Shown here: piece by piece, positions 3,850 through 60,689 of the stretch
Layout: every line of letters begins with the position of its first letter
Position numbering within the stretch: position 1 is the first letter of the stretch
Assembly: GCA_965262915.1 (NCBI GenBank)
Contig: OZ253564.1
Location: 512,001-576,000, forward strand
Direction: 5' to 3'
DNA from: Candidatus Spongiisociaceae bacterium
GTDB lineage: Bacteria > Actinomycetota > Acidimicrobiia > Spongiisociales > Spongiisociaceae
Length of the DNA: 64,000 nt
Program-made: the position numbers and the translations under genes
Notes under the pieces: generated by a model
What the model was told of the DNA's origin: nothing
The model's input: only the letters and a program-made list of their open reading frames with translations
Databases searched by the model: none

Positions 3850-4360
3850 GCGTTTCCCCAGGTAGAAGCAGGTTTCCGCCAACCAGCGGCCGGGGCGTGC
3901 ACAAACCCGCCCAGCCACGTATGGATATACACCACACAGCGCCAGTCAACAATAAGCTGCAAGACCCTCCGTTCCCCACTCCCAAACGCCCGAGTCACCC
4001 GGCGCAGACGTGAGGCGGGAGCTCCCCGACAGCCCGCCCGGCTGATCCTCAACACCTCGGCTCCCTCGGACGGAGCGGAGACCGCTCCCGGGTGCCGCTG
4101 CGCCACCGACAACTGCACAGCACGCCTATCCATCTACAACCCGGCCGACCACTGCCGCCTCCACTCCCCCAACCGATACCCACGCACATGGAAACCGCCA
4201 AGGCTGGTGAAACCACCGGACGGGTAACCGCTGTCGGCCGCCGGTCGAACCCCCAGCGGAAGGGGTGTCCGCGTCCGCCGGCCGGGCGGACAGCCATGTA
4301 GCCGGTTCCCTAAGCACGCTAACCAACATAACCCAAAGGCTAGAAGCCGATTCAAGGGCC
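3850..4360 (+). repeat. Diverged copy of an island intergenic block that includes a small Cys/His ORF remnant
   Basis: Similar to 28972-29330 and 29718-29770 (GTTTCCCCAGGTAGA, CTATCCATCTACAACCCG, AACATAAC..AAAGG). Confidence 0.7.
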
Positions 4361-23024: not shown

Positions 23025-24476
23025 CCCGGGTTCAAGGGGTCGTTGCAACACTGCCTTGTTGGAGGGAGTGTAGGTGCTCGTTGAGGGTCTCGGCGGGGGT
23101 CTTCCAGTTGAGGGTTTTGCGGGGTCGGCTGTTGAGTGCTGCAGCGACGGCGTCGAGGTCGTTGCGTGAGTGTCTGTGGAGGTCGGTGCCTTTGGGGAAG
23201 TATTGGCGTAGGAGGCCGTTGGTGTTCTCGTTGGTTCCGCGCTGCCATGGACTCTGCGGGTCGCAGAAGTAGATGTCGAGGTTGGTGTCTGTGCGGAGCT
23301 GGGCGTGTTGTGCCATTTCGACTCCTTGGTCCCAGGTCAGCGAGCGGCGGAGCTGTTGGGGCAGGGTGATGATCGACGCAGCGATAGCGTCTCGTACGGC
23401 TTGGGCGCCGTGGCCGGCGAGAGGGGGCCCGTTGTGGACCCGTTGCTGTTTTCGGTGGCCTGGCATGGGTGGGAGGTGCAGCAGCATCGTGAACCGGGTG
23501 GTCCGCTCCACCAGTGTTCCGATCGCAGAACTGTGGAGTCCGATGATCAGGTCGCCTTCCCAGTGGCCTGGCACTGCCCGGTCGTCGGCCTCGGCGGGGC
23601 GTTGGGTGATCATGATCTCGGGAGCAACGAACGTCTTGCGTCGCCTCCGGGTTCGTGCCCTGGGGACCCGCAACGCTCGCCCGGTCCGCAAACAAGCCAC
23701 CAACTCGCGTTTGAGCGCACCCCTGCCTTGCACATAAAGCGCCTGGTAGATCGCTTCGTGGGAGATTCTCATCGACTCATTATCGGGGAAATCGACCCGG
23801 AGCCGGTTCGAGATCTGCTCAGGGCTCCACGACGTTGCCCACCGTCGATCCTTTCGGGGCCCATGACGGCGACCGACCCAGCGCACCTGGGGGCCTGGCA
23901 CCAGCTCACCATCGGGGCGGGCGATAACGCCACCGAGACGATCTTGGACGTACCGGCGAAGCTTGTCGTTCTCAGCGAGCTTCGCCACCTTCGGACGGCA
24001 GGCACGCCGATCCGAATGCCACTGCGCGGTCGTGGCCCGATACTCCAGGCCTCCGCTACGGGTTGCGGCGTTGCGGCGCAACTCACGTGAGATCGTCGAC
24101 GCACACCGACCCAGGCGGCGGGCGATCTCACGCACCCCACAGTCGCGGGCGTGGAGAACCGCGATCTCTTCCCGCTCAACAAAAGATAAATAGCGTCCCG
24201 AAACAGGGACGAAAGAAAATGGGACCATCCCACCATTCTCGCGGAACCAACGCGAACCAACCGCGGGCGACACACCAGCCGCCACACCGGCATCCTCGCT
24301 CGACAACCCACCAGCGATCCCTTCCCAAAACCGCTCCCGATGCTCACGCCGCCCGACCGGCGGACGACCAGGCGACCGCATCGCCGGCCGCAACGCACGA
24401 TCAGCCCTACGAACCTTCCTTGCTCCCATTGCAACTCCTCACTCTCGAGACGTTGCGACGACCGTTTGAATCCACC
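23025..24476 (-). mobile_element. IS30 family element (copy 1)
   Basis: Ends GGTTCAAGGGGTCGTTGCAAC / GTTGCGACGACCGTTTGAATCC enclose the transposase. Confidence 0.9.
23032..24429 (-). CDS. IS30 family transposase
   Basis: WSPEQIS, ISHEAIYQ, GHWEGDL, TWDQG, SPWQRGTNENTNGLLRQYFPKG. Confidence 0.95.
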   Translation of the reverse strand: MGARKVRRADRALRPAMRSPGRPPVGRREHRERFWEGIAGGLSSEDAGVAAGVSPAVGSRWFRENGGMVPFSFVPVSGRYLSFVEREEIAVLHARDCGVREIARRLGRCASTISRELRRNAATRSGGLEYRATTAQWHSDRRACRPKVAKLAENDKLRRYVQDRLGGVIARPDGELVPGPQVRWVGRRHGPRKDRRWATSWSPEQISNRLRVDFPDNESMRISHEAIYQALYVQGRGALKRELVACLRTGRALRVPRARTRRRRKTFVAPEIMITQRPAEADDRAVPGHWEGDLIIGLHSSAIGTLVERTTRFTMLLHLPPMPGHRKQQRVHNGPPLAGHGAQAVRDAIAASIITLPQQLRRSLTWDQGVEMAQHAQLRTDTNLDIYFCDPQSPWQRGTNENTNGLLRQYFPKGTDLHRHSRNDLDAVAAALNSRPRKTLNWKTPAETLNEHLHSLQQGSVATTP

Positions 24477-24812
24477 CAATATCTGTCCATTCGCTACACG
24501 AACCGGCTGGCGGAAGCCGGCATCGAGCCATCGGTCGGCTCGGTTGGGGATTCGTACGATAACGCCCTCGCCGAATCCGTCATCGGTCTGTACAAGACAG
24601 AACTCATCCACAAACGCGCTCCGTGGAAGGACCTCGACCAGGTCGAGTACGCCACCCTCGAATACGTGGACTGGTTCAACCACCGCCGGCTTCTCGAACC
24701 CATCGGAGACATCCCACCAGCAGAAAAGGAGGCCAACTACCATCGTCAACAGGAACGAGTCCAGCTAGCTGGACTCAAGTAAAACACTCTCCGGCAAACC
24801 CGGTACGGTTCA
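24477..24812 (+). mobile_element. IS3 family 3' fragment with right IR
   Basis: [30 protein letters not shown]; ends CCCGGTACGGTTCA. Confidence 0.9.
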
Positions 24813-26994: not shown

Positions 26995-28784
<1,790 letters not shown>

Positions 28785-28971
28785 AACTGGCACATCTCCA
28801 AGGTAACCAACGGACCCACCGAAGCGCTCAACAACCTAATCAAACGGATCAAACGAGCAGCGTTCGGGTTCCGCAACTTCGCGAACTACCGAATACGGGC
28901 ACTCCTCTACGCCGGAAAACCCAACTGGGACCTACTCGCGACCGTCACTCCCCACTAAAACGCGATGAGCC
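28785..28971 (+). mobile_element. ISL3 family 3' fragment with right IR
   Basis: TNGPTEALNNLIKRIKRAAFGFRNFANYRIRALL; ends CGCGATGAGCC. Confidence 0.85.
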
Positions 28972-29116
28972 TGTTTCCCCAGGTAGATGGCGGTTTCCGG
29001 CGGTCGGCGGCCGGTGGCGTGCATAACACGGTCGAATATACGACGGTTACTACTGGTCAACGATGGTCAGCAGAGACCCGGCTAGTAGACGATCTCCCGC
29101 GTACCGTGAACCCCCT

Positions 29117-29284
29117 ATGAGCAGAGTCCGTCCCCCAGGGCGCCCACCACCCACATATCCCCCCGGCCGCTACTGCACCACCGACAGCTGCACGGCGCGC
29201 CTATCCATCTACAACCCGACCGACCACTGCGGCCTCCACTCCCCCCGCCGACACCCACACAAACGGAACCGCCGAGGCTGGTGA
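29117..29284 (+). CDS. Small Cys/His (putative Zn-binding) protein
   Basis: C-x4-C-TARLSIYN-x4-C-x2-H, conserved in the paralogous block at ~4090-4210. Confidence 0.5.
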   Translation: MSRVRPPGRPPPTYPPGRYCTTDSCTARLSIYNPTDHCGLHSPRRHPHKRNRRGW

Positions 29285-29864
29285 GACTATCGGGCGGGTA
29301 GCCGCTGTCGGCGGCCGGTCGAGCCTCCCGAGTCCTTTCAGAGGTTGGGAATACGGCAGTAGGTGGGAGGGGCCGTTACGTGGGGGGAAACGGCCCGAGG
29401 TTCCCGGGCCCAGAACGCTGCTCTACCCGCGGGCTCGCCGGATGCGGGACACCATCGACCACCACTCCCGATCCGCCACCGGCGCGTCTTTACCCACCAG
29501 CACCCGCAGCGACACAAGCAAGAGCCGATATTGGGTGACCACCATTAGGCTGCCCCTCGTCGAGACCATACCAACCGACACGAGCCCCCAGCGGAAGGGT
29601 GCTCCGCTGCCGCCACCCGGCGAACAGCCATGGAACCGGGTTCCCCAGCACGCCGTTGGTGGCTCTCCCCCTCGAGGGGTTTCGGACGGAAACGACCCCG
29701 AAACCGTCCCAAACCGGCCCTAAGATCGTTAACTAACATAACGCAAAGGGCTGGGAGCCGTTTTGCGGGCTGGGAGAACCCTGCCATGAGCCGGGGAGGC
29801 TTGGCCGTCCTGGTTTGTGTCTTCTTTTCTTGGGCGTCGGCGGGTGGGCCTGTCGGGGGTGTCC

Positions 29865-29914
29865 ATGCCCTGCCATGCCGCGCCGAGCCCAGCCACGCCA
29901 CGCCCAGCCAAGCC
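29865..29914 (-). ncRNA. (GGC-NN)x10 pentamer array, candidate guide RNA
   Basis: Minus strand GGCtt GGCtg GGCgt GGCgt GGCtg GGCtc GGCgc GGCat GGCag GGCat; the array is seen directly, its RNA function is inferred. Confidence 0.6.
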
Positions 29915-29954
29915 GCGAAGAAGGTTGGCCCTGCGCGAAAACACTCATACTTAT

Positions 29955-30135
29955 AGGGTTTCCGGTTGGGGCCGGGTCTGACTCACGCGAAAACTGGCCT
30001 TTGGTGCCTTTCCCACGATCTGTCGACCTGGCCCCGGCTAGGAACCCTGAACCGGGGAGCGGGGTGACTTGATAGGAGCCTTCGACTTCTCCACCGTGAG
30101 TGTTCTGTCCGCCGCTCTGCCCGGCTCCGGGGGTT
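29955..30135 (+). ncRNA. IS110 bridge RNA (target-binding loop, then donor-binding loop)
   Basis: Two hairpins with internal loops holding CGCGAAAAC/CCCACG (match the target) and ATAGGAGC/TGAGTG (match the circle junction). Confidence 0.75.
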
Positions 30136-30166
30136 GGATTCTAGGCAGCCGACGAAAGGCGAGCAC

Positions 30167-31399
30167 ATGGCGGAGCAAGTTAGGGCCGATGGGGTAGGTG
30201 TGGTTGGCGGGGTGGACACACATCGGGATTTCCACGTTGGGGCGGTGGTGGATGGCGCGGGTCGCCTGTTGGGATCCGATCAGTTCGGCGCTGATACCTC
30301 CGGTTATGCCCAACTGGTCGCCTGGATGGAGTCGTGGGGTCGGATCACACGGGTCGGGGTGGAAGGAACGGGCAGCTACGGCGCTGGGCTCACACGTCAT
30401 CTTGCCGAGGCGGGTATCGGTGTGGTGGAGGTGAACCGTCCCAACCGCCAGCTTCGCCGGCGGCGGGGCAAGGATGACACCACCGACGCCGAAGCAGCAG
30501 CCCGGGCTGCTCTCAACGGTGAAGCGACCGCCCTACCCAAGACGGGCGACGGACCGGTAGAAGCCACCAGGATGCTGCGGGTAGTTCGCCGCTCCGCGGT
30601 CAAAGCCCGCACCCAGGCCGCCAACCAGCTGCACGCTCTGGTAGTAACCGCTCCTGAGCAGGTCAAACACCAACTCCGGGATCTCCCGACCCGGACACAG
30701 GTCAAGGTCTGTGCCCGCTTCCGTCCGGGCACAGCGCAGACCACTGCGGCATACGCCAAGCGGGCACTGCGGCTTCTAGCCCGCCGATACCAGAATCTAG
30801 ACACCGAGATCACACAGGTCGACAAACAGATCCGCGGTCTCTGCGCACGGGCCAACCCTGCGTTGCTGGCCGCCTACGGAGTAGGACCCGACACCGCCGC
30901 TGCTCTGCTGGTCGCTGCTGGTGACAACCCACGACGTATGAACTCAGAAGCAGCCTTCGCGGCCCTCTGCGGTGTCAGCCCCGTAGCCGCATCATCGGGA
31001 CGGATAGTGCGGCACCGTCTCAACCGAGGCGGCAACCGCCAAGCAAACAACGCGCTATGGCGGATCGCTACCAACCGAATGCGCACCGACGCTGCCACCA
31101 AAGAATATGTCACCAGACGCGAAGCGGAAGGAAAAACCCACACCGAAATAATCCGCTGCCTGAAACGCCACATCGCCCGCGAGATATACCACCTCCTCAC
31201 CGACCCGCCCCCAACACCCCACGGAACCGACCTACGCCACCGCCGAACCCAAGCCCGAATCACCCTCACCCGCGCCGCCCACCACCTCGACACGCAGCCC
31301 ACCGTCCTATCACAACTCGAACGAGGCCTCCACCACAACCACCACCTCGCTACCCGATACCAACACTGGCTCACCCAACAACCGATTTGCAAAACATAG
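30167..31399 (+). CDS. IS110 family recombinase with C-terminal XRE-like HTH
   Basis: GVDTH, GVEGTGSYG, GKDDTTDA (DEDD), GVGP, SSG..RLNRGGNR; RBS GAAAGG. Confidence 0.95.
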   Translation: MAEQVRADGVGVVGGVDTHRDFHVGAVVDGAGRLLGSDQFGADTSGYAQLVAWMESWGRITRVGVEGTGSYGAGLTRHLAEAGIGVVEVNRPNRQLRRRRGKDDTTDAEAAARAALNGEATALPKTGDGPVEATRMLRVVRRSAVKARTQAANQLHALVVTAPEQVKHQLRDLPTRTQVKVCARFRPGTAQTTAAYAKRALRLLARRYQNLDTEITQVDKQIRGLCARANPALLAAYGVGPDTAAALLVAAGDNPRRMNSEAAFAALCGVSPVAASSGRIVRHRLNRGGNRQANNALWRIATNRMRTDAATKEYVTRREAEGKTHTEIIRCLKRHIAREIYHLLTDPPPTPHGTDLRHRRTQARITLTRAAHHLDTQPTVLSQLERGLHHNHHLATRYQHWLTQQPICKT

Positions 31400-31498
31400 G
31401 AGCATCGTGGGTTGGGTGGGGTGAAATCCTTGGAATGGGGGTGAGGCCCCGCTGGAATCGGTGAATAGCCAACATCGCCGATCCAGGGAGAGGCCTCG

Positions 31499-32695
31499 AT
31501 GTCTGATGTTATGCAAGTACGGCTGCACCTGTCGGGTGTTCGCGTGATGAGAGTGCTGGTCGACTCTGTTGAGCGTCTTGAGGTTGAAGTCGAATCGGCT
31601 CGGGAGTGGTCGCGGTGCCGCCATTGCGGGTTCCGCTGCTATCGGGTGTGGGACCGACGGCCCAAGAGGGTTCGTGACCTGGGGGTGAGCGGCCGCCGCA
31701 CCACGCTGGTGTGGCGGCGACGCCGGTTCGAATGTGGGAACTGTGGCGAGCGGCACCTCGAGGACCACGACCAGTTCGAAGCTGGCCTAACCCGCCGGTT
31801 CGCCCGTCGCCTGGTGGCGGATGCAACGGTGATGTCGATTCGGGCAGCGTCCCGCCATCATGGGGTGGGGTGGCATCGGATCATGGGCCTTGTCCGCGCG
31901 GAGGCGGCTCAGGTGGCGCAGCGTCGCCGGGCCCGGCCGTGTCGTGTGCTGTTGGTCGACGAAACGTCGATACGGCGCCGTCACCGGTATGTGACCGTGG
32001 TGGCCTGTGGCGACAGCGGCAAGGTGCTGGCGATGATCCCGGGCCGTACGAAAGGGTCGCTGGCCAGGTTCTTTAGGGATCAAGGACCCCAGTGGTGCCG
32101 GCAGGTGGAGATAGTCGTGAGCGACGGGTCCCGCTCATATCAGGCCGCAATCGCACAGTATCTGCCAGCTGCTCGCCATGTGCTCGACCGGTTCCACGTC
32201 GTACGCTGGTTCACCCAAGGCCTCACTCTGGTACGCAGAGAGCTGCAGCGCCGCGACCCCCACCGGCGTCCCCCAACGTTCGAGCCGGATCTGTCCCGAG
32301 CCCGCTTCACCCTCCTGCGCCGGGCCGATCACCTAACCGAAGCCCACCAGGCGCACCTCGACAGACTGTTCGATGCTCATCCCCGTCTCCGCACCGCGTG
32401 GGACGCTCTCCAAGAGCTCTACCAGCTATATCAGGCAGACGACCTCGACGGGGCCAACCAGGCGCTCGGACGGTTCGCCGACCTCTACGCCACCGGCCAG
32501 ATACCCCAATACCACCAAGTCGTGGACACCATCATCGCATGGGGAGAACAGATCTTGGCCTACCACACCACCCAACGACGGGTATCCAACGGACCCCCCG
32601 AAGGGATCAACAACCTCCACCAAGTCCTACGACGCGTCGCCCACGGCTTCACCAACTACGACAACTACGCCGCCCGAGGAATCCTCGTAACATGA
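31499..32695 (+). CDS. ISL3 family transposase
   Basis: N-terminal CxxC..CxxC, LVDETS, VVSDG, LDRFHVV, SNGPPEGINN. Confidence 0.93.
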   Translation: MSDVMQVRLHLSGVRVMRVLVDSVERLEVEVESAREWSRCRHCGFRCYRVWDRRPKRVRDLGVSGRRTTLVWRRRRFECGNCGERHLEDHDQFEAGLTRRFARRLVADATVMSIRAASRHHGVGWHRIMGLVRAEAAQVAQRRRARPCRVLLVDETSIRRRHRYVTVVACGDSGKVLAMIPGRTKGSLARFFRDQGPQWCRQVEIVVSDGSRSYQAAIAQYLPAARHVLDRFHVVRWFTQGLTLVRRELQRRDPHRRPPTFEPDLSRARFTLLRRADHLTEAHQAHLDRLFDAHPRLRTAWDALQELYQLYQADDLDGANQALGRFADLYATGQIPQYHQVVDTIIAWGEQILAYHTTQRRVSNGPPEGINNLHQVLRRVAHGFTNYDNYAARGILVT

Positions 32696-32736
32696 CCCCA
32701 CACCGAGCGCCAGCACAGCCAAAACCCACGATGCTC

Positions 32737-33969
32737 CTATGTTTTGCAAATCGGTTGTTGGGTGAGCCAGTGTTGGTATCGGGTAGCGAGGTGGTGGTTG
32801 TGGTGGAGGCCTCGTTCGAGTTGTGATAGGACGGTGGGCTGCGTGTCGAGGTGGTGGGCGGCGCGGGTGAGGGTGATTCGGGCTTGGGTTCGGCGGTGGC
32901 GTAGGTCGGTTCCGTGGGGTGTTGGGGGCGGGTCGGTGAGGAGGTGGTATATCTCGCGGGCGATGTGGCGTTTCAGGCAGCGGATTATTTCGGTGTGGGT
33001 TTTTCCTTCCGCTTCGCGTCTGGTGACATATTCTTTGGTGGCAGCGTCGGTGCGCATTCGGTTGGTAGCGATCCGCCATAGCGCGTTGTTTGCTTGGCGG
33101 TTGCCGCCTCGGTTGAGACGGTGCCGCACTATCCGTCCCGATGATGCGGCTACGGGGCTGACACCGCAGAGGGCCGCGAAGGCTGCTTCTGAGTTCATAC
33201 GTCGTGGGTTGTCACCAGCAGCGACCAGCAGAGCAGCGGCGGTGTCGGGTCCTACTCCGTAGGCGGCCAGCAACGCAGGGTTGGCCCGTGCGCAGAGACC
33301 GCGGATCTGTTTGTCGACCTGTGTGATCTCGGTGTCTAGATTCTGGTATCGGCGGGCTAGAAGCCGCAGTGCCCGCTTGGCGTATGCCGCAGTGGTCTGC
33401 GCTGTGCCCGGACGGAAGCGGGCACAGACCTTGACCTGTGTCCGGGTCGGGAGATCCCGGAGTTGGTGTTTGACCTGCTCAGGAGCGGTTACTACCAGAG
33501 CGTGCAGCTGGTTGGCGGCCTGGGTGCGGGCTTTGACCGCGGAGCGGCGAACTACCCGCAGCATCCTGGTGGCTTCTACCGGTCCGTCGCCCGTCTTGGG
33601 TAGGGCGGTCGCTTCACCGTTGAGAGCAGCCCGGGCTGCTGCTTCGGCGTCGGTGGTGTCATCCTTGCCCCGCCGCCGGCGAAGCTGGCGGTTGGGACGG
33701 TTCACCTCCACCACACCGATACCCGCCTCGGCAAGATGACGTGTGAGCCCAGCGCCGTAGCTGCCCGTTCCTTCCACCCCGACCCGTGTGATCCGACCCC
33801 ACGACTCCATCCAGGCGACCAGTTGGGCATAACCGGAGGTATCAGCGCCGAACTGATCGGATCCCAACAGGCGACCCGCGCCATCCACCACCGCCCCAAC
33901 GTGGAAATCCCGATGTGTGTCCACCCCGCCAACCACACCTACCCCATCGGCCCTAACTTGCTCCGCCAT
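32737..33969 (-). CDS. IS110 family recombinase with C-terminal XRE-like HTH
   Basis: Identical to 30167-31399. Confidence 0.95.
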   Translation of the reverse strand: MAEQVRADGVGVVGGVDTHRDFHVGAVVDGAGRLLGSDQFGADTSGYAQLVAWMESWGRITRVGVEGTGSYGAGLTRHLAEAGIGVVEVNRPNRQLRRRRGKDDTTDAEAAARAALNGEATALPKTGDGPVEATRMLRVVRRSAVKARTQAANQLHALVVTAPEQVKHQLRDLPTRTQVKVCARFRPGTAQTTAAYAKRALRLLARRYQNLDTEITQVDKQIRGLCARANPALLAAYGVGPDTAAALLVAAGDNPRRMNSEAAFAALCGVSPVAASSGRIVRHRLNRGGNRQANNALWRIATNRMRTDAATKEYVTRREAEGKTHTEIIRCLKRHIAREIYHLLTDPPPTPHGTDLRHRRTQARITLTRAAHHLDTQPTVLSQLERGLHHNHHLATRYQHWLTQQPICKT

Positions 33970-34000
33970 GTGCTCGCCTTTCGTCGGCTGCCTAGAATCC

Positions 34001-34181
34001 AACCCCCGGAGCCGGGCAGAGCGGCGGACAGAACACTCACGGTGGAGAAGTCGAAGGCTCCTATCAAGTCACCCCGCTCCCCGGTTCAGGGTTCCTAGCC
34101 GGGGCCAGGTCGACAGATCGTGGGAAAGGCACCAAAGGCCAGTTTTCGCGTGAGTCAGACCCGGCCCCAACCGGAAACCCT
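34001..34181 (-). ncRNA. IS110 bridge RNA (copy 2)
   Basis: Mirror of 29955-30135. Confidence 0.75.
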
Positions 34182-34218
34182 ATAAGTATGAGTGTTTTCG
34201 CGCAGCCTCAGAAGGTTT

Positions 34219-34818
34219 CTACGGGAGCGGTTCGATGTCCTCCACCTCGTACCGGCCGTACTGTCCCGATTTTTCGGGTCGCCAGTCCCCAACCCCGACC
34301 CGGCGTCCCCCAATGTCCAACCATCGCAGCAGCTGGTCGCGGTCTACGAGTTCGGGGTCTACCTCGACGAGGATCGTGGCTGCCCACTGGTCGAACCGGG
34401 CCCGGGTACGCAACAGACGGCTCCCCCCGACTCTCACCCCGGTGGTGAACTGGCAGCTGCGGGCCAGCTCCTCGGCGGTGGTGCCCGGGCTCCGGTCGTG
34501 GTGGAAGCGCTCCACTGCTTCCACCACCAGCCCTTCCCGAACTTTGGGGCCGTGCCGCAACCCCCAAGGAGAGGGACGCCGCCTCATGAGGGCTGTGCCG
34601 CAGCTGCGTGTGCCAGTCACAAGGCGAAACTGAACACAGCCTCCCTCCACTACCAGCCGGAACGCCCACCGAGAGACAAAGCACGACGGATCAGAGCAAA
34701 AGCCATCCCACAAATCAGCGACGAACTCGCCCGAGCTGGCGGAACCGTCGAAGGCATGGGAACCCATCAACGCCAAAGACCGCCGACAACCCGTCCCCGA
34801 ACGTGGCATCACCCACAC
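34219..34818 (-). CDS. RAMP/Cas7-like Gly-loop protein of phage/MGE type; only the C-terminal ~120 aa look genuine (probably 5'-truncated)
   Basis: RTRARFDQW..VDPELVDRDQLLRWLDIGGRRVGVGDWRPEKSGQYGRYEV; originally directly upstream of the GGC-NN array. Confidence 0.6.
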   Translation of the reverse strand: MWVMPRSGTGCRRSLALMGSHAFDGSASSGEFVADLWDGFCSDPSCFVSRWAFRLVVEGGCVQFRLVTGTRSCGTALMRRRPSPWGLRHGPKVREGLVVEAVERFHHDRSPGTTAEELARSCQFTTGVRVGGSRLLRTRARFDQWAATILVEVDPELVDRDQLLRWLDIGGRRVGVGDWRPEKSGQYGRYEVEDIEPLP

Positions 34819-35104
34819 GTCGGCTTAAAACCAGGCTCGGGAAGAACCTCCGATACGGGACGGGTACCGGTCCGCCCGCGGCTTCCTAGCGTAGGAGGTC
34901 TGTACTCCCTCGAGTTCTGCACTCCCGGCGTCCTCGAGGAGATCGGTCGTGTGCCGATATTGGGTGACCACGAGGTCGGCCGCAACAGCGATACTGCCCA
35001 CCGAGATCAGGGCTACGTTCTCAGCGAACCATCAACGGCGAGACCTCAACCCGTTCGATATGCGGTGTCAAACACAAGATGCGTGCGCAGGAGCCGCTGC
35101 GTCA

Positions 35105-36334
35105 TCATTCGAGAGCGGCGGCCCACCGGGACAGATGATCCAACGGAATCCGGACATTGCCGGGTATTCGTCTCCGAGCCCTGGTGGCTCGCGCCTCGTC
35201 CTCGCGCATTGCATCCCGTAACTGTGAACTCTCGTTCTCTTCCGATAGCTGCATTTCCCATGCGCGTGCGAGAGCGAAGTGCCGTTTCAATTGGTGATAG
35301 TCAAGCTCGTTGGGGCGTCTAGCGCCCCCGCCGCACACACTACACTCACACGCAAACGCTCGGTCCACTTCCACCAACGAGGTGGCTGCAGCTGTTGGCA
35401 TATAAGCGTGCAGCTTCCGCACATAATATCGAGCAGGTGCAGCACCAGTAGCATCTAGTGTCGGCCAGTCTCGTGACTCGCTATATCCCAATCCGTTATT
35501 AAACCCAGCTAGCCCAACCTTACCCAAGAGTATGCTGAAGTATCCACCGTAGAGGTTCATAAGTTTACGGTTCCCACTCAGTACAGATATCGTCGCTCTA
35601 AGTGAACGAAGATCAGCTACAGACCTCGTACGCTCATCGAATCCTGGTACCCAGAAGAAGATCCTGGAGGAGAGATGATCTGGGACGCAGAGAATTGCTT
35701 CTTCAAGCATCGACAACTCGGTGATCGCAACGACAGGTGAGATTTCATTTGGACGATCAAGACGTTGAGCTGAAGCCCAGAGCCGTTGTGTCACCTCCCA
35801 CCAATCGCTTGATCTGGTTCTAGCCGCGAAGTACGGGCACAACAAGTATGTCGGGCTCTTCGCATCGCTTTCGGATTCCACGTTGCCAGACCCACCTTGG
35901 GCACGATCTAACAGGGACTTATAGCGGTTCAACTTCTCAGCTATATGTTCGGCTCTACCACCGTAGTCGCGTTGAAAGCTGATCATCGATGAGACTACTT
36001 CGTCGCATACGTCAGAGGAATAAAACTCGGCCGGGAACCGGACGCCCTGACCTTCTTGCTCTGACGGTCGACCGAGTCTCTCTACCACCGATTGACCCAT
36101 CGTAGATGCAAGGGTGTAGTGTGAGGCACGCGGATCTCTGATAACCTCCTGGAAGAGAGGGGTTCGCGGCTCAATGAAGTAGTCAAGTCCTGACGACAGC
36201 ACGAAGCCCGCAGTCGCGTCCTGATAATACGAAGCGATCGTAGACGGAACACTCATCACGTCAAAGCAGCGTCGGACTTCTAGATTACGAAAACTAGCTT
36301 GATCTGAGTTCCCGTAGGCGAGGCAATGGAGCAT
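35105..36334 (-). CDS. Hypothetical protein, possibly TIM-barrel/TGT-like, with C-terminal CxCxxC..H Zn site
   Basis: 409-aa ORF, lower GC, CECSVC..KRH; start overlaps the upstream stop. Confidence 0.7.
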   Translation of the reverse strand: MLHCLAYGNSDQASFRNLEVRRCFDVMSVPSTIASYYQDATAGFVLSSGLDYFIEPRTPLFQEVIRDPRASHYTLASTMGQSVVERLGRPSEQEGQGVRFPAEFYSSDVCDEVVSSMISFQRDYGGRAEHIAEKLNRYKSLLDRAQGGSGNVESESDAKSPTYLLCPYFAARTRSSDWWEVTQRLWASAQRLDRPNEISPVVAITELSMLEEAILCVPDHLSSRIFFWVPGFDERTRSVADLRSLRATISVLSGNRKLMNLYGGYFSILLGKVGLAGFNNGLGYSESRDWPTLDATGAAPARYYVRKLHAYMPTAAATSLVEVDRAFACECSVCGGGARRPNELDYHQLKRHFALARAWEMQLSEENESSQLRDAMREDEARATRARRRIPGNVRIPLDHLSRWAAALE

Positions 36335-36756
36335 CAGACGGATGCTCCCATACTCGCTTCCTCCATATTGGAGTTCACGAGTCGATCACGGATCCGTGTG
36401 ACCGGTGGCGTTCGGATTGCTTGCTGAACTATGCACGTTCTTTCAGTGTCGACGGAGACAACGCCGATCCGATACCGCGCTGCTTCACTCAGCCTCTCTG
36501 GGGTCACCTGGTGCACAAGGATCGCTACGTAGACGTAGTCTACACAGTATTGGTGCAAGAAGGCCTGCGCCAATAGGCGCCCCCAGTGTGAGAGCTTGGC
36601 CTCCACGGCAAAGAGCGCTGACGGTGTTTTTACCAAGATGTCCATCCGTGCTTGATCATGGCAGCGTACCTCTACATGACTGCTAGCCTCTGCTCCCCAT
36701 AGCTCGGCAACATCTCGTCGAAGGTCGGCAACCATCTCAGCCTCAGAATTGTACAT
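36334..36756 (-). CDS. Small PD-(D/E)xK nuclease-like protein
   Basis: EV..MDILV..AVEAKL..W..LAQA..DYVYVA. Confidence 0.7.
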   Translation of the reverse strand: MYNSEAEMVADLRRDVAELWGAEASSHVEVRCHDQARMDILVKTPSALFAVEAKLSHWGRLLAQAFLHQYCVDYVYVAILVHQVTPERLSEAARYRIGVVSVDTERTCIVQQAIRTPPVTRIRDRLVNSNMEEASMGASV

Positions 36757-37343
36757 TAGCTTGTCTCCGGTCCGTGCCGGACGAGGGCAGTCAGGCGCCG
36801 CTCAGTTAAGCGAGCGTAGATGAGCAGTATGCTGTATCCCATGGCAGCAACAATGGTCGCTGCAAACAGCGCCCAAGAGCCCTTCGATAGAGTGACTCCG
36901 TCGTTCCGGAGCGCAATCACCAACGGCACTATGAATCCTAGGAAACACAAGCCGCCAACGATAGAACATAGTCGTCGTGCCCGTCTCAGCTGACTTGAAC
37001 GCCTATATAGAGTGTCGAACTCGAATACGTTGAAGTGGTACGCAGCGATAGCGTCCAGAACTTCCGGTTTGTCAAAGGTGTATTTTAGTTCCGTCTCCAA
37101 ACGGTCTTCCTCGCTTTGCTGAAGGTATAATCGCCTGATGGGGATCATATGCGTGTACAGCAGCCTGATCATTTGTGATCCTATGCTGTTCCGGAGCATT
37201 CGTACCTGCTCGTTTAAGCTATTACCTCCTGCCTTCGTATCGCGGCGATCGTGTCGCCACATAAGCGTGACACTGATCACTGCAACAGCGGCGATAACGA
37301 TATCGTAGACGGTCTGCCAATAATTAGGCATAGCCTGCGACAA
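36756..37343 (-). CDS. Membrane protein (about 3 TM)
   Basis: One N-terminal and two C-terminal hydrophobic helices; coupled to neighbours. Confidence 0.7.
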   Translation of the reverse strand: MSQAMPNYWQTVYDIVIAAVAVISVTLMWRHDRRDTKAGGNSLNEQVRMLRNSIGSQMIRLLYTHMIPIRRLYLQQSEEDRLETELKYTFDKPEVLDAIAAYHFNVFEFDTLYRRSSQLRRARRLCSIVGGLCFLGFIVPLVIALRNDGVTLSKGSWALFAATIVAAMGYSILLIYARLTERRLTALVRHGPETS

Positions 37344-37349
37344 GCCTCA

Positions 37350-37889
37350 CTAGTCGGAGTGAACTATCTTGTCACGAATAACGGATCTGACTGCATAGTC
37401 AGGATACTTAGTGTATACATAATAGATCAGAGTCTGCAGAGGCAGGCCGGCATAAGTGTCCTTGATTCGTCTGATCTCAGCCTCAAGCTGAGGACGATTA
37501 CGAAACAAATAACGAGCGATACTTTTACCATCGTCGGTGAGTATGAACTGGCGCTCGTAGGATATTTCTGTCGCCATACCTGAGTAAAGCAATTCTTCAG
37601 CACGATCAAGTTCTGAATCAGTGAAGTTCCGCTGCTCCTCTATTAGGCCAGCCTCCTCTAGGAGTTCGACGGCCTCGTATACCTCTTTGGAGTAAGGCCC
37701 GTAGTGATAAGGCACAAAATCGAAGGTCTCATCGAGAGCTTCCCCATAGTTGCATTCTTTGTCTACGAGGAACAAGAGTTTCTCGAGGCGCGTGATTCCG
37801 TTGATTCGATTGGTAGCTTGTTCCCAACGAGTTGAAGTTGCCAGTAGCAAAAGCACCAGATCTGGAGCTATCAGCGGTTCGTTCTCCAC
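37350..37889 (-). CDS. SocA/Panacea (DUF4065)-like winged-helix protein
   Basis: GITRLEKLLFL, FVPYHYGPYSKEVY..L..GLI, YVYTKYP. Confidence 0.75.
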   Translation of the reverse strand: MENEPLIAPDLVLLLLATSTRWEQATNRINGITRLEKLLFLVDKECNYGEALDETFDFVPYHYGPYSKEVYEAVELLEEAGLIEEQRNFTDSELDRAEELLYSGMATEISYERQFILTDDGKSIARYLFRNRPQLEAEIRRIKDTYAGLPLQTLIYYVYTKYPDYAVRSVIRDKIVHSD

Positions 37890-54387: not shown

Positions 54388-57651
<3,264 letters not shown>

Positions 57652-59375: not shown

Positions 59376-59571
59376 CCGACTACCGACTACCGACTACCGA
59401 CTACCGACTACCGACTACCGACTACCGACTACCGACTACCGACTACCGACTACCGACTACCGACTACCGACTACCGACTACCGACTACCGACTACCGACT
59501 ACCGACTACCGACTACCGACTACCGACTACCGACTACCGACTACCGACTACCGACTACCGACTACCGACTA
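59376..59571. repeat. (CCGACTA)28 perfect heptamer tandem repeat
   Basis: 196 bp = 28 units read directly. Confidence 0.95.
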
Positions 59572-60689
59572 CCTAAGACTTCCGTCATCCGCCTGGCCAC
59601 CACGTCGGCGTCGCCCGGCAGCATCGTCATCGGGTCGATCACGATGGCTTCTCCGTCGGCCCGCATCGCGATCGAGGGTTCCCCGGCCAGGAGTTGGTCG
59701 ATGATCGATGCGGCCGGCGGTGTCTTGGCGGGATCGAACGTGACGTATCCGCGAGCGACCGCGGCGGGTGCAGCCGCGTGACCCTTGGAGCCCACCTCGG
59801 CCTGTACCCCGTCGATCGTGTTGAGGACGGCGGCGATTGCCTCCAGGTCCTTCCTCCAGCGCGCCAATTCCTCTTCCTCGTCCGCGGCGAGGAACAACTC
59901 GACGGCGGCCAGCAGACCTACGATCTCCTCCTTGCCCACCTTCATGCCACGGCCGATAGCAGTGAAGGGGTTGGCGTTCAGCCGGACCGCCTCCACCAGG
60001 TCGGCCTGCCCGAGGACCAAGCCGGTGCTCTGCGGTCCTCTGATCGCCTTACCGCCACTGAAGACAACCGCGGAAGCCCCCAACTCGAGAAGGGATCTCA
60101 GGTTGGACCGGGGCGGAAGTTGGGCAGCGGCGTCGACGATAAGCGGTACGCCGCGCTCCGAAGCGGCGGAAGCCAACTCGGCCAGGTCCTGCTCGGACTG
60201 CAGGCCGTAGAACAACACTACGGCCGCGGCGCGCGGCCCTATCGCAGCAACCATATCGGCGGTGCTCACGTCTGTCCGGCTACCGACCTTGATCAGCTTC
60301 CCGCCCACTGACTCGATGCCCTGATGGACGAACACATGGGGGTCTATGAGACTGATCACGAACTCATCGGGAAACGCCTCGGTATGCGGCAGGCTTGCGA
60401 TCCTCTCCGGGTCTCCTTTCGTCATGCAGGCCGCCGCGCACATCGCCACGCCACTGGAGGCACCGCACGAGATGAAGGCGGCTTCGACACCGATCATCTC
60501 GGCCAGCTTCTCGCCTGCCTTCCGGTGCAAAGCGTTCAGGTCGATGAACGATCGGGCTGCGGCGGCCATCGCTGCGACCACCTTTTTCGGCATAACGCTG
60601 CCCCCCAGCGTGGTGGAGTTTCCTGACGCGTTTAAGAACGGTCGCAGACCAAGGAGTCTCCGGTAAGGATCGTCGTCGCATCTGCCCAT
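59562..60689 (-). CDS. SelA-like PLP-dependent enzyme (DgaE-like)
   Basis: NASG..T.LGGS, VDAAAQ, FSGGK..GPQ, IGRGMKVGKEEI. Confidence 0.88.
   Translation of the reverse strand: MGRCDDDPYRRLLGLRPFLNASGNSTTLGGSVMPKKVVAAMAAAARSFIDLNALHRKAGEKLAEMIGVEAAFISCGASSGVAMCAAACMTKGDPERIASLPHTEAFPDEFVISLIDPHVFVHQGIESVGGKLIKVGSRTDVSTADMVAAIGPRAAAVVLFYGLQSEQDLAELASAASERGVPLIVDAAAQLPPRSNLRSLLELGASAVVFSGGKAIRGPQSTGLVLGQADLVEAVRLNANPFTAIGRGMKVGKEEIVGLLAAVELFLAADEEEELARWRKDLEAIAAVLNTIDGVQAEVGSKGHAAAPAAVARGYVTFDPAKTPPAASIIDQLLAGEPSIAMRADGEAIVIDPMTMLPGDADVVARRMTEVLGSR

Follow-up and report, generated by a model that had tools for sequence, protein, structure and literature searches.

A probable relic of a VIPR system in a Candidatus Spongiisociaceae bacterium: a truncated vipr gene separated from its guide array by a composite insertion sequence

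We analysed a 64,000-nt stretch of contig OZ253564.1 from a Candidatus Spongiisociaceae bacterium (the window in what follows, always at its full length, with positions counted from its first letter), in which a reading of the letters alone, here called the original prediction, had singled out positions 29865-34818 as a candidate RNA-guided system. Two parts of this locus lie on the minus strand: an open reading frame (ORF; 34219-34818) whose 3' part is homologous to Vipr, the protein of the VIPR (Viral Interference Programmable Repeat) systems, and an array of ten pentamers, each made of GGC and a variable dinucleotide (NN). A composite insertion sequence (IS) lies between them (Table 1).

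Table 1. Positions of the features at the VIPR locus and of the direct repeats that bracket it
Feature	Position	Strand	Remarks
19-nt perfect direct repeat GCCGATATTGGGTGACCAC, left copy	29524..29542	+	
GGACA, the "GGA" boundary typical of the arrays of the clade	29860..29864	-	directly after the last unit; GGA after 79/146 of the relatives' arrays
vrRNA-type guide array	29865..29914	-	ten perfect GGC-NN pentamers; NN = TT TG GT GT TG TC GC AT AG AT
TCGC and left copy of the target-site duplication (AGAAGGTT on the + strand)	29915..29926	-	part of the original 13-nt gap
Composite insertion sequence	29927..34209		4283 bp, separating the vipr remnant from the array; flanked by an 8-bp direct repeat
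IS110-family transposase gene, left arm	30134..31399	+	Pfam DEDD_Tnp_IS110 7.9e-24, Transposase_20 7.9e-19; NCBIfam transpos_IS110 5.2e-59
ISL3-family transposase gene, unique centre	31499..32695	+	Pfam DDE_Tnp_ISL3 3.8e-59; NCBIfam transpos_ISL3 1.4e-84
Second IS110-family transposase gene, right arm	32737..34002	-	translation identical to the left-arm gene
Target-site duplication, right copy AGAAGGTT	34210..34217		
vipr remnant	34219..34559	-	stop and ~112 C-terminal codons (thumb, last strands, G-loop GVGDWRPEKSG); homology, coding-like GC
Replaced 5' region of the ORF	34560..34818	-	86 non-Vipr codons keeping the frame open; no homology, non-coding-like GC
19-nt perfect direct repeat GCCGATATTGGGTGACCAC, right copy	34953..34971	+	

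On the minus strand, the array reads GGCTT GGCTG GGCGT GGCGT GGCTG GGCTC GGCGC GGCAT GGCAG GGCAT, with an invariant GGC triplet and 7 different NN among the 10 units, which are the perfect pentamers and the dinucleotides that the original prediction had listed. The next-longest run of GGY (Y, pyrimidine) with a period of 5 on either strand of the window comprises 4 units, and in 200 dinucleotide-preserving shuffles of the sequence the longest run had 3 units in 111 shuffles, 4 in 84 and 5 in the remaining 5. From the frequency of GGC, the expected count of 10-unit GGC runs was 4e-11.

When the ORF was compared with the PDB (phmmer), a single significant chain was found, 36pp_D, described as "SUSP1 Vipr protein" (E 2.1e-7), in which residues 112-188 of the 202-residue chain aligned with residues 115-193 of the ORF, GVGDWRP included. 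Neither this ORF nor a full-length relative matched any Pfam, NCBIfam or PADLOC family; the Vipr family is not yet present in these libraries. A scan of 1.84 billion representative proteins with a threshold of E <= 1e-3 recovered 1763 representatives related to the ORF, the best of which were ~200 aa long and 53-60% identical, and aligned only from their own residue ~86 onward, to residues ~86/87-198 of the ORF. A profile built from 30 sequences of the family matched 36pp_D over its full length (3-195 vs 4-190, E 5.3e-32).

The fold of the family was examined on an AlphaFold model of one of these full-length relatives, P0001 (pLDDT 95.2, pTM 0.89). A Foldseek comparison of this model with a PDB copy that predates the VIPR structures returned 34 chains with E <= 0.001, TM about 0.4-0.55 and 10-16% identity, and among the matches listed all chains came from class 1/type VII CRISPR effector complexes (Cas7, Csm3 and Cmr-beta of types VII, III-A and III-B). 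Given the profile match to the SUSP1 chain together with the structural matches to Cas7 and Csm3, the family is Vipr, a minimal Cas7-like RAMP, which bears out the RAMP/Cas7 assignment that the original prediction had made from the glycine-rich end of the protein. That prediction had the protein ending in GRYEV, whereas the translation runs on with EDIEPLP before the stop.

The contacts of Vipr with its guide have been described for phage SUSP1, where, according to the structure preprint, H17 and D177 read G1, R138 and W178 read G2, and the pyrimidine pocket includes R179 (10.64898/2026.04.26.720927). R139, D178, W179 and R180 of the window ORF align with SUSP1 R138, D177, W178 and R179, and judged from this alignment the C-terminal half of the ORF would therefore have been a normal Vipr. 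The equivalent of H17 is a conserved H in the relatives' consensus PLIMHxG, and falls, like K33 and helix 1, in the part that the window copy has lost.

The Vipr part of the ORF is confined to residues 87-198. Nucleotide homology to the 2 closest relatives, L001 and L026, stops at 34559, and the region 34560-35104 found no match among the upstream regions of the relatives by sensitive blastn and tblastx. GC at the three codon positions follows the usual coding pattern in the rest of the ORF (0.75/0.48/0.81), and is not coding-like in the first 86 codons (0.57/0.64/0.67). A tblastn search with eight full-length relatives detected no N-terminal Vipr part in any frame of the window, recovering only residues ~84-198, and a frameshifted N-terminus was sought in the window and not found. 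The N-terminus suspected to be missing is thus indeed lost, and with it RRM strand 1 carrying the conserved His, the helical bundle and helix 1. The complete ~200-aa RAMP, with RRM core, thumb and glycine-rich loop, is absent in the window and present in the relatives. In the AlphaFold model of the window ORF, pLDDT was 86-94 at residues 90-170 and 190-199, 78-80 across the G-loop (residues 171-190), and below 50 at residues 23-42, 46-55 and 65-82. Foldseek gave only weak Csm3/Cas7 matches for this model (best E 1.9e-3, none <= 0.001), in keeping with half a fold; the truncated protein cannot form the RAMP fold.

The insertion is bounded by an 8-bp duplication, AGAAGGTT, at 29919-29926 and 34210-34217; 8 bp is a typical target-site duplication size in the ISL3 family. 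Upon excision of the insert and one duplication copy, the minus strand reads TAG (34221-34219), 13 nt (A + AACCTTCT + TCGC) and the first GGC unit, so that the array begins 13 nt past the vipr stop, the same junction that had been predicted. The insert itself had been taken for an ISL3 element; the ISL3 gene and the flanking duplication were correctly seen, but the element is not a plain ISL3, since its centre is enclosed by two perfectly inverted 1483-nt arms (29931-31413 and 32723-34205, 100% complementary), each bearing an IS110-family gene of a kind that NCBIfam labels "RNA-guided transposase". The terminal 4 nt of the composite differ (GGCC/GAGG). It looks like one ISL3 whose two terminal inverted repeats have each received an IS110 copy, with later homogenisation or misassembly as alternatives. 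No match to the ISL3 centre turned up in the plasmid collection, and an uninterrupted copy that would define the IS110 insertion points was not recovered.

Misassembly could in principle reach further, in that the truncation, the inverted-arm IS or both might be assembly errors or a minority variant of a true locus with an intact VIPR. We hold this to be very improbable. Identical inverted arms of this length are a structure that assemblers can create or collapse, and the region is packed with repeated IS copies, but the insert is surrounded by a clean 8-bp target-site duplication, and the break at the 5' end of vipr, ~350 nt away, is independent of the IS.

To place the locus among its relatives, we used a 10-sequence alignment as query in a scan of GTDB species genomes and analysed the best 80 of 115 confirmed loci. 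Their hosts are uncultured Dehalococcoidia and other Chloroflexota, Caldilineaceae, Binatia, Acidimicrobiia, Vicinamibacterales, Alpha- and Gammaproteobacteria, and others; this VIPR clade resides for the most part in the chromosomes of uncultured bacteria. Identity to L001 did not exceed 32% for the closest copies of the phage collection; for those of the plasmid collection it was 36% in a partial match and at most 34% where at least 80% of the query was covered. Among the matches listed, all annotated phage and plasmid copies were labelled hypothetical or phage protein. L001 is the closest relative of the window copy (74% identity over 112 residues), followed by L026 (73%), and their arrays begin 9 nt and 3 nt past the vipr stop, respectively.

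This arrangement is general. Counting as arrays those GGY-NN runs with at least 5 good units, and requiring the same strand as vipr, an array starts between -30 and +100 nt from the vipr stop in 68/80 loci (median distance 10.5 nt), as the original prediction had anticipated for homologues, and lies within -1500 to +1000 nt of the stop in all loci except L066 (79/80); in 13/80 loci an array is found upstream of vipr. Arrays on the vipr strand outnumber those on the opposite strand by 198 to 10. Where an array has at least 8 good units (146 arrays), the median length is 15 units (quartiles 13 and 17, range 8-39), the third base of the triplet is C in 1647/1961 units, and the three bases past the last unit are GGA in 79 arrays and GGG in 18. 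Many loci, among them L024, L004, L051, L049 and L072, carry trains of 3-7 consecutive arrays with gaps of ~10 nt, often GGAC plus ~6 nt, which suggests that several guides are processed from one transcript with very short tails.

These data also bear on whether the ten pentamers are a guide at all, or instead a microsatellite born of slippage, a piece of a coding repeat or a structural element rich in G, placed beside the gene by chance. The genome is GC-rich, and Tandem Repeats Finder registers the ten pentamers only with a period of 20 and 82% matches; however, the NN vary freely while GGC is invariant, a 5-nt period is incompatible with a codon repeat, the ORFs across the array have no family match, and the same architecture recurs beside Vipr in 79/80 loci from many phyla with different NN. 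The argument against slippage made in the original prediction therefore holds, and a non-guide origin is almost certainly wrong.

Upstream of vipr, 60/80 loci contain an HNH-type ORF that starts ~270-360 nt before the gene. Its first ~110 residues carry an invariant CxxCG...HH...CxxCH...RR, its profile matches ZRANB3 (6.2e-5), an HNH-bearing CasD (1.4e-4) and IscB (6.2e-4), and the Pfam HNH domain was detected in 10/22 members. No HNH motif was found in the longer family members P0025, P0113, P0142, P0011 and P0007, which were inspected for HNH-Vipr fusions. The other neighbours of vipr vary between loci, so that the conserved unit is a compact two-gene cassette plus arrays; L001, for instance, lies near genes for a tyrosine integrase and an AlpA-like protein, and no att-like repeats were found around this integrase-bearing locus. 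In the window, no vap/HNH accessory gene was found, and none of the 80 loci has anything that corresponds to the sequence upstream of 34559.

The HNH-type ORF (L001 4660-5259 and equivalents in 60/80 loci) stays open in the +1 frame for ~78-86 codons into vipr, and in 56/60 of these loci it ends at +225 to +297 within the gene. Across 76 loci, stops in the +1 frame average 0.82 over the first 80 codons vs 3.21 over the 108 codons that follow, with 2.34 for the other frame, and third-position entropy at four-fold sites is 1.41 vs 1.59 bits (p = 0.009). The overlap could be a real one or a frameshift coupling. The homology break of the window (34559) maps 2 nt from the end of the L001 HNH ORF. 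A reading that joins these observations is that the ~80-codon overlap is conserved as dual coding or as a nuclease-filament frameshift, and that the window holds a free-standing C-terminal module with an orphan guide used in trans by an intact Vipr elsewhere in the genome. We rate it as quite improbable; were it true, VIPR guides would be exchangeable, as in CRISPR arrays, and would outlive their own effector gene. The conserved HNH-vipr overlap in the relatives is the one item here that might merit separate follow-up.

VIPR systems, which the original prediction had named as GGY/NN systems of phages, are in print in preprints of 2026. As these describe them, vrRNAs have 9-16 YNNGG repeats (10.64898/2026.04.26.720920), one Vipr protomer binds each repeat, as determined experimentally for phage SUSP1 (10.64898/2026.04.26.720920, 10.64898/2026.04.26.720927), and pairing of the NN bases with double-stranded DNA leaves out every third base of the target (same two preprints). 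The sections on SUSP1 thus report by experiment what had been proposed for the window array, namely one subunit per pentamer and a gapped target read by the NN. The general VIPR layout given there is likewise a compact two-gene cassette with arrays, and HNH domains appear among the Vap proteins in a figure legend (10.64898/2026.04.26.720920). Two further preprints on VIPR are 10.64898/2026.10.15.759431 and 10.64898/2026.10.21.760802.

Taken together, these results indicate, with a probability of about 0.85, that the locus is the relic of a VIPR system, decayed and non-functional. Vipr homology and a GGY-NN array are present; a complete Vipr and a vap gene are lacking because the locus is a remnant. 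An intact member would consist of a small HNH-nuclease gene followed by vipr (~200 aa) and by one or more arrays a few nt past the stop. By analogy with SUSP1, Vipr protomers would polymerise on the transcript, one per pentamer, each GGY being held by the thumb arginine and the D-W-R of the G-loop, and the NN would be presented to double-stranded DNA with every third target base skipped. The HNH partner of this clade would then cut the bound DNA, which would amount to defence rather than silencing.

Two lesions separate the window copy from that state. One has removed the first ~85 codons of vipr and the accessory gene, leaving unrelated sequence from a sharp breakpoint at 34559/34560; gone with these codons are the helical bundle, helix 1 and RRM strand 1, as well as the G1-reading His. 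In the other, the ISL3/IS110 composite has inserted itself into the 13 nt that lay between vipr and the array. In the relatives, the gap between stop and array has no room for a separate promoter, from which we infer that transcription normally reaches the array from upstream and is now blocked by the IS. That this copy is dead, as the original prediction had suspected, agrees with the truncated vipr, the missing vap gene and the IS between gene and array, and on these sequence features the locus is probably non-functional.

Several observations weigh against this interpretation. The array together with its 3' flank has no stable fold (z = 0.03), and no conserved 3' tail like the SUSP1 pseudoknot was recognised in the window or its relatives, tails differing even between close relatives. 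With 10 units against a median of 15, the array stands at the short end of the clade range, within the 9-16 stated in the preprint for vrRNAs (10.64898/2026.04.26.720920). All ten GGC triplets are still perfect, which means that the damage is recent or that selection continues to act on the array. Assembly error could account for the perfect 1483-nt inverted arms. The ORF is open over 199 codons, the normal length of the family, which we treat as a coincidence, and its AlphaFold model has a confident strand at residues 11-19. We discount this strand and attribute it to forced alignment columns, since tblastn, blastn and tblastx find nothing at that place.

The intact array raises the further alternative that it still serves as a live orphan guide, transcribed from its own promoter or by read-out from the IS and loaded in trans by an intact Vipr encoded elsewhere in the genome. 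The GGA boundary is as intact as the triplets, two VIPR loci occur in one genome in several relatives (L060/L065, L012/L013, L071/L077 and L058/L080), and the 13/80 loci with arrays upstream of and away from vipr imply that read-through from vipr is not required. On the other hand, the 64-kb window contains no second vipr, a recent insertion likewise predicts an intact array, and scans for promoters and terminators in the surroundings of both the array and the vipr remnant returned nothing, with no sigma-70-like promoter near the array. We regard a live orphan guide as unlikely, and the decayed relic as the better account of the locus. Rfam over 28500-35500 gave a single sub-threshold chance match and none at gathering score.

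We also searched for targets of the guide, using the NN code of the array with a 1-nt skip (gapped pattern TTnTGnGTnGTnTGnTCnGCnATnAGnAT) and a threshold of at least 16/20 NN matches, in the window and the 80 related loci (0.85 Mb). No site reached this threshold under the 1-nt skip rule, and with 0-3 skipped bases the only one that did was the array itself, at skip 3.

In line with the original prediction, neither cas genes nor a CRISPR array were found in the window by Pfam on 53 ORFs, PADLOC on 8 and Tandem Repeats Finder. The locus is surrounded by restriction-modification, toxin-antitoxin and IS genes. The first 40 kb encode an Eco57I-type methylase, a T5orf172/ResIII protein, a 1366-aa AAA_16 protein, a C5 methylase and a HATPase_c_3 protein, together with HepT/MNT and HigB-like/HTH pairs, an integrase fragment and three IS30-like transposase genes. 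No tRNA gene was found in the window. An IS graveyard adjoins the locus: the IS30-like transposase genes of the window (HTH_38 + rve; 23032-24429, 27002-28402 and 56244-57644) have flanks that are 94-95% identical (repeats 24001-24751 and 27971-28723) and lie among IS3-type transposase fragments.

On the other side of the vipr remnant, a block of low GC (35105-37889; 49-55% vs 63% overall) holds four co-oriented genes, which encode a 409-aa protein of an unnamed family, a 140-aa protein, a 195-aa membrane protein and a 179-aa Panacea/SocA-like protein (PADLOC PDC-M19A, 7e-16). An atlas search with the 409-aa protein gave only unnamed clusters, and none of the four genes has a counterpart beside vipr in the 80 loci. 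This block is probably a separately acquired toxin-antitoxin or defence module.

The VIPR remnant is bracketed by the 19-nt direct repeat of Table 1, for which 0.03 matches are expected by chance and which occurs in none of the 80 related loci; its copies may mark the limits of a cassette that was once integrated, or the borders of a deletion. Downstream of the array, 28973-29653 is partly repeated at 3852-4319 in three blocks of 78-85% identity, the copy near the array having ~250 extra nt that include the 19-mer; this repeated element is unclassified. Farther away, a perfect heptamer tandem repeat, (CCGACTA) x 28.3, occupies 59376-59573, just upstream of a SelA-like gene.

Beyond this single copy, the analysis points to a large chromosomal, HNH-partnered VIPR clade spread over many phyla of uncultured bacteria, and to VIPR loci that decay as CRISPR loci do, by truncation and IS insertion that leave orphan guide arrays behind. 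The case also indicates that raw sequence suffices for a reader to recognise a VIPR system. In the view put forward in the 2026 preprints, VIPR is a possible ancestor of the CRISPR backbone with a new, gapped reading of DNA.

The backbone proteins of class 1 CRISPR systems polymerise on guide RNA with a fixed period, as these preprints recount (10.64898/2026.04.26.720920, 10.64898/2026.04.26.720927), and Cas7, Csm3, Cmr4 and the type VII Cas7 share, by the modelled structure, the fold of Vipr. The period of VIPR is 5 nt with 2 read bases, vs 6 nt with 5 read bases in class 1 CRISPR; unlike the latter, the window locus has no repeat-spacer array and no cas operon, and sequence identity is just 10-16%.

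The closest characterised counterpart is the type II VIPR of SUSP1 (36pp), type II systems being those that, as characterised in the preprint, silence competing phages and satellites (10.64898/2026.04.26.720920). With it the locus shares a homologous Vipr in which the thumb Arg and the D-W-R of the G-loop are kept, a GGY-NN array beside the gene and the lack of cas genes or a CRISPR array. It differs in that its closest full-length relative, L001, has ~26% identity to the Felixounavirus-type phage copies, that its setting is a chromosomal defence island rather than a phage, that the accessory gene of its relatives is an HNH nuclease and not the DNA-binding Vap1, and that their arrays begin 3-45 nt past the stop and end in GGA and a short spacer, with no pseudoknot tail seen. 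The window copy is, moreover, truncated and split by an IS. Types III and V, according to the passages of the preprint that deal with them, are enriched in defence islands, are the sole types with predicted nucleases and have vrRNAs that match viral sequences (10.64898/2026.04.26.720920). Those passages do not mention an ~80-codon +1-frame overlap of HNH and vipr such as that of the relatives; in the HNH-type ORF of the relatives (60/80) and in its place among defence and mobile genes, the locus is like types III and V as described there. It is a further, decayed member of a kind already present in the 2026 preprints, and is nothing new in kind.

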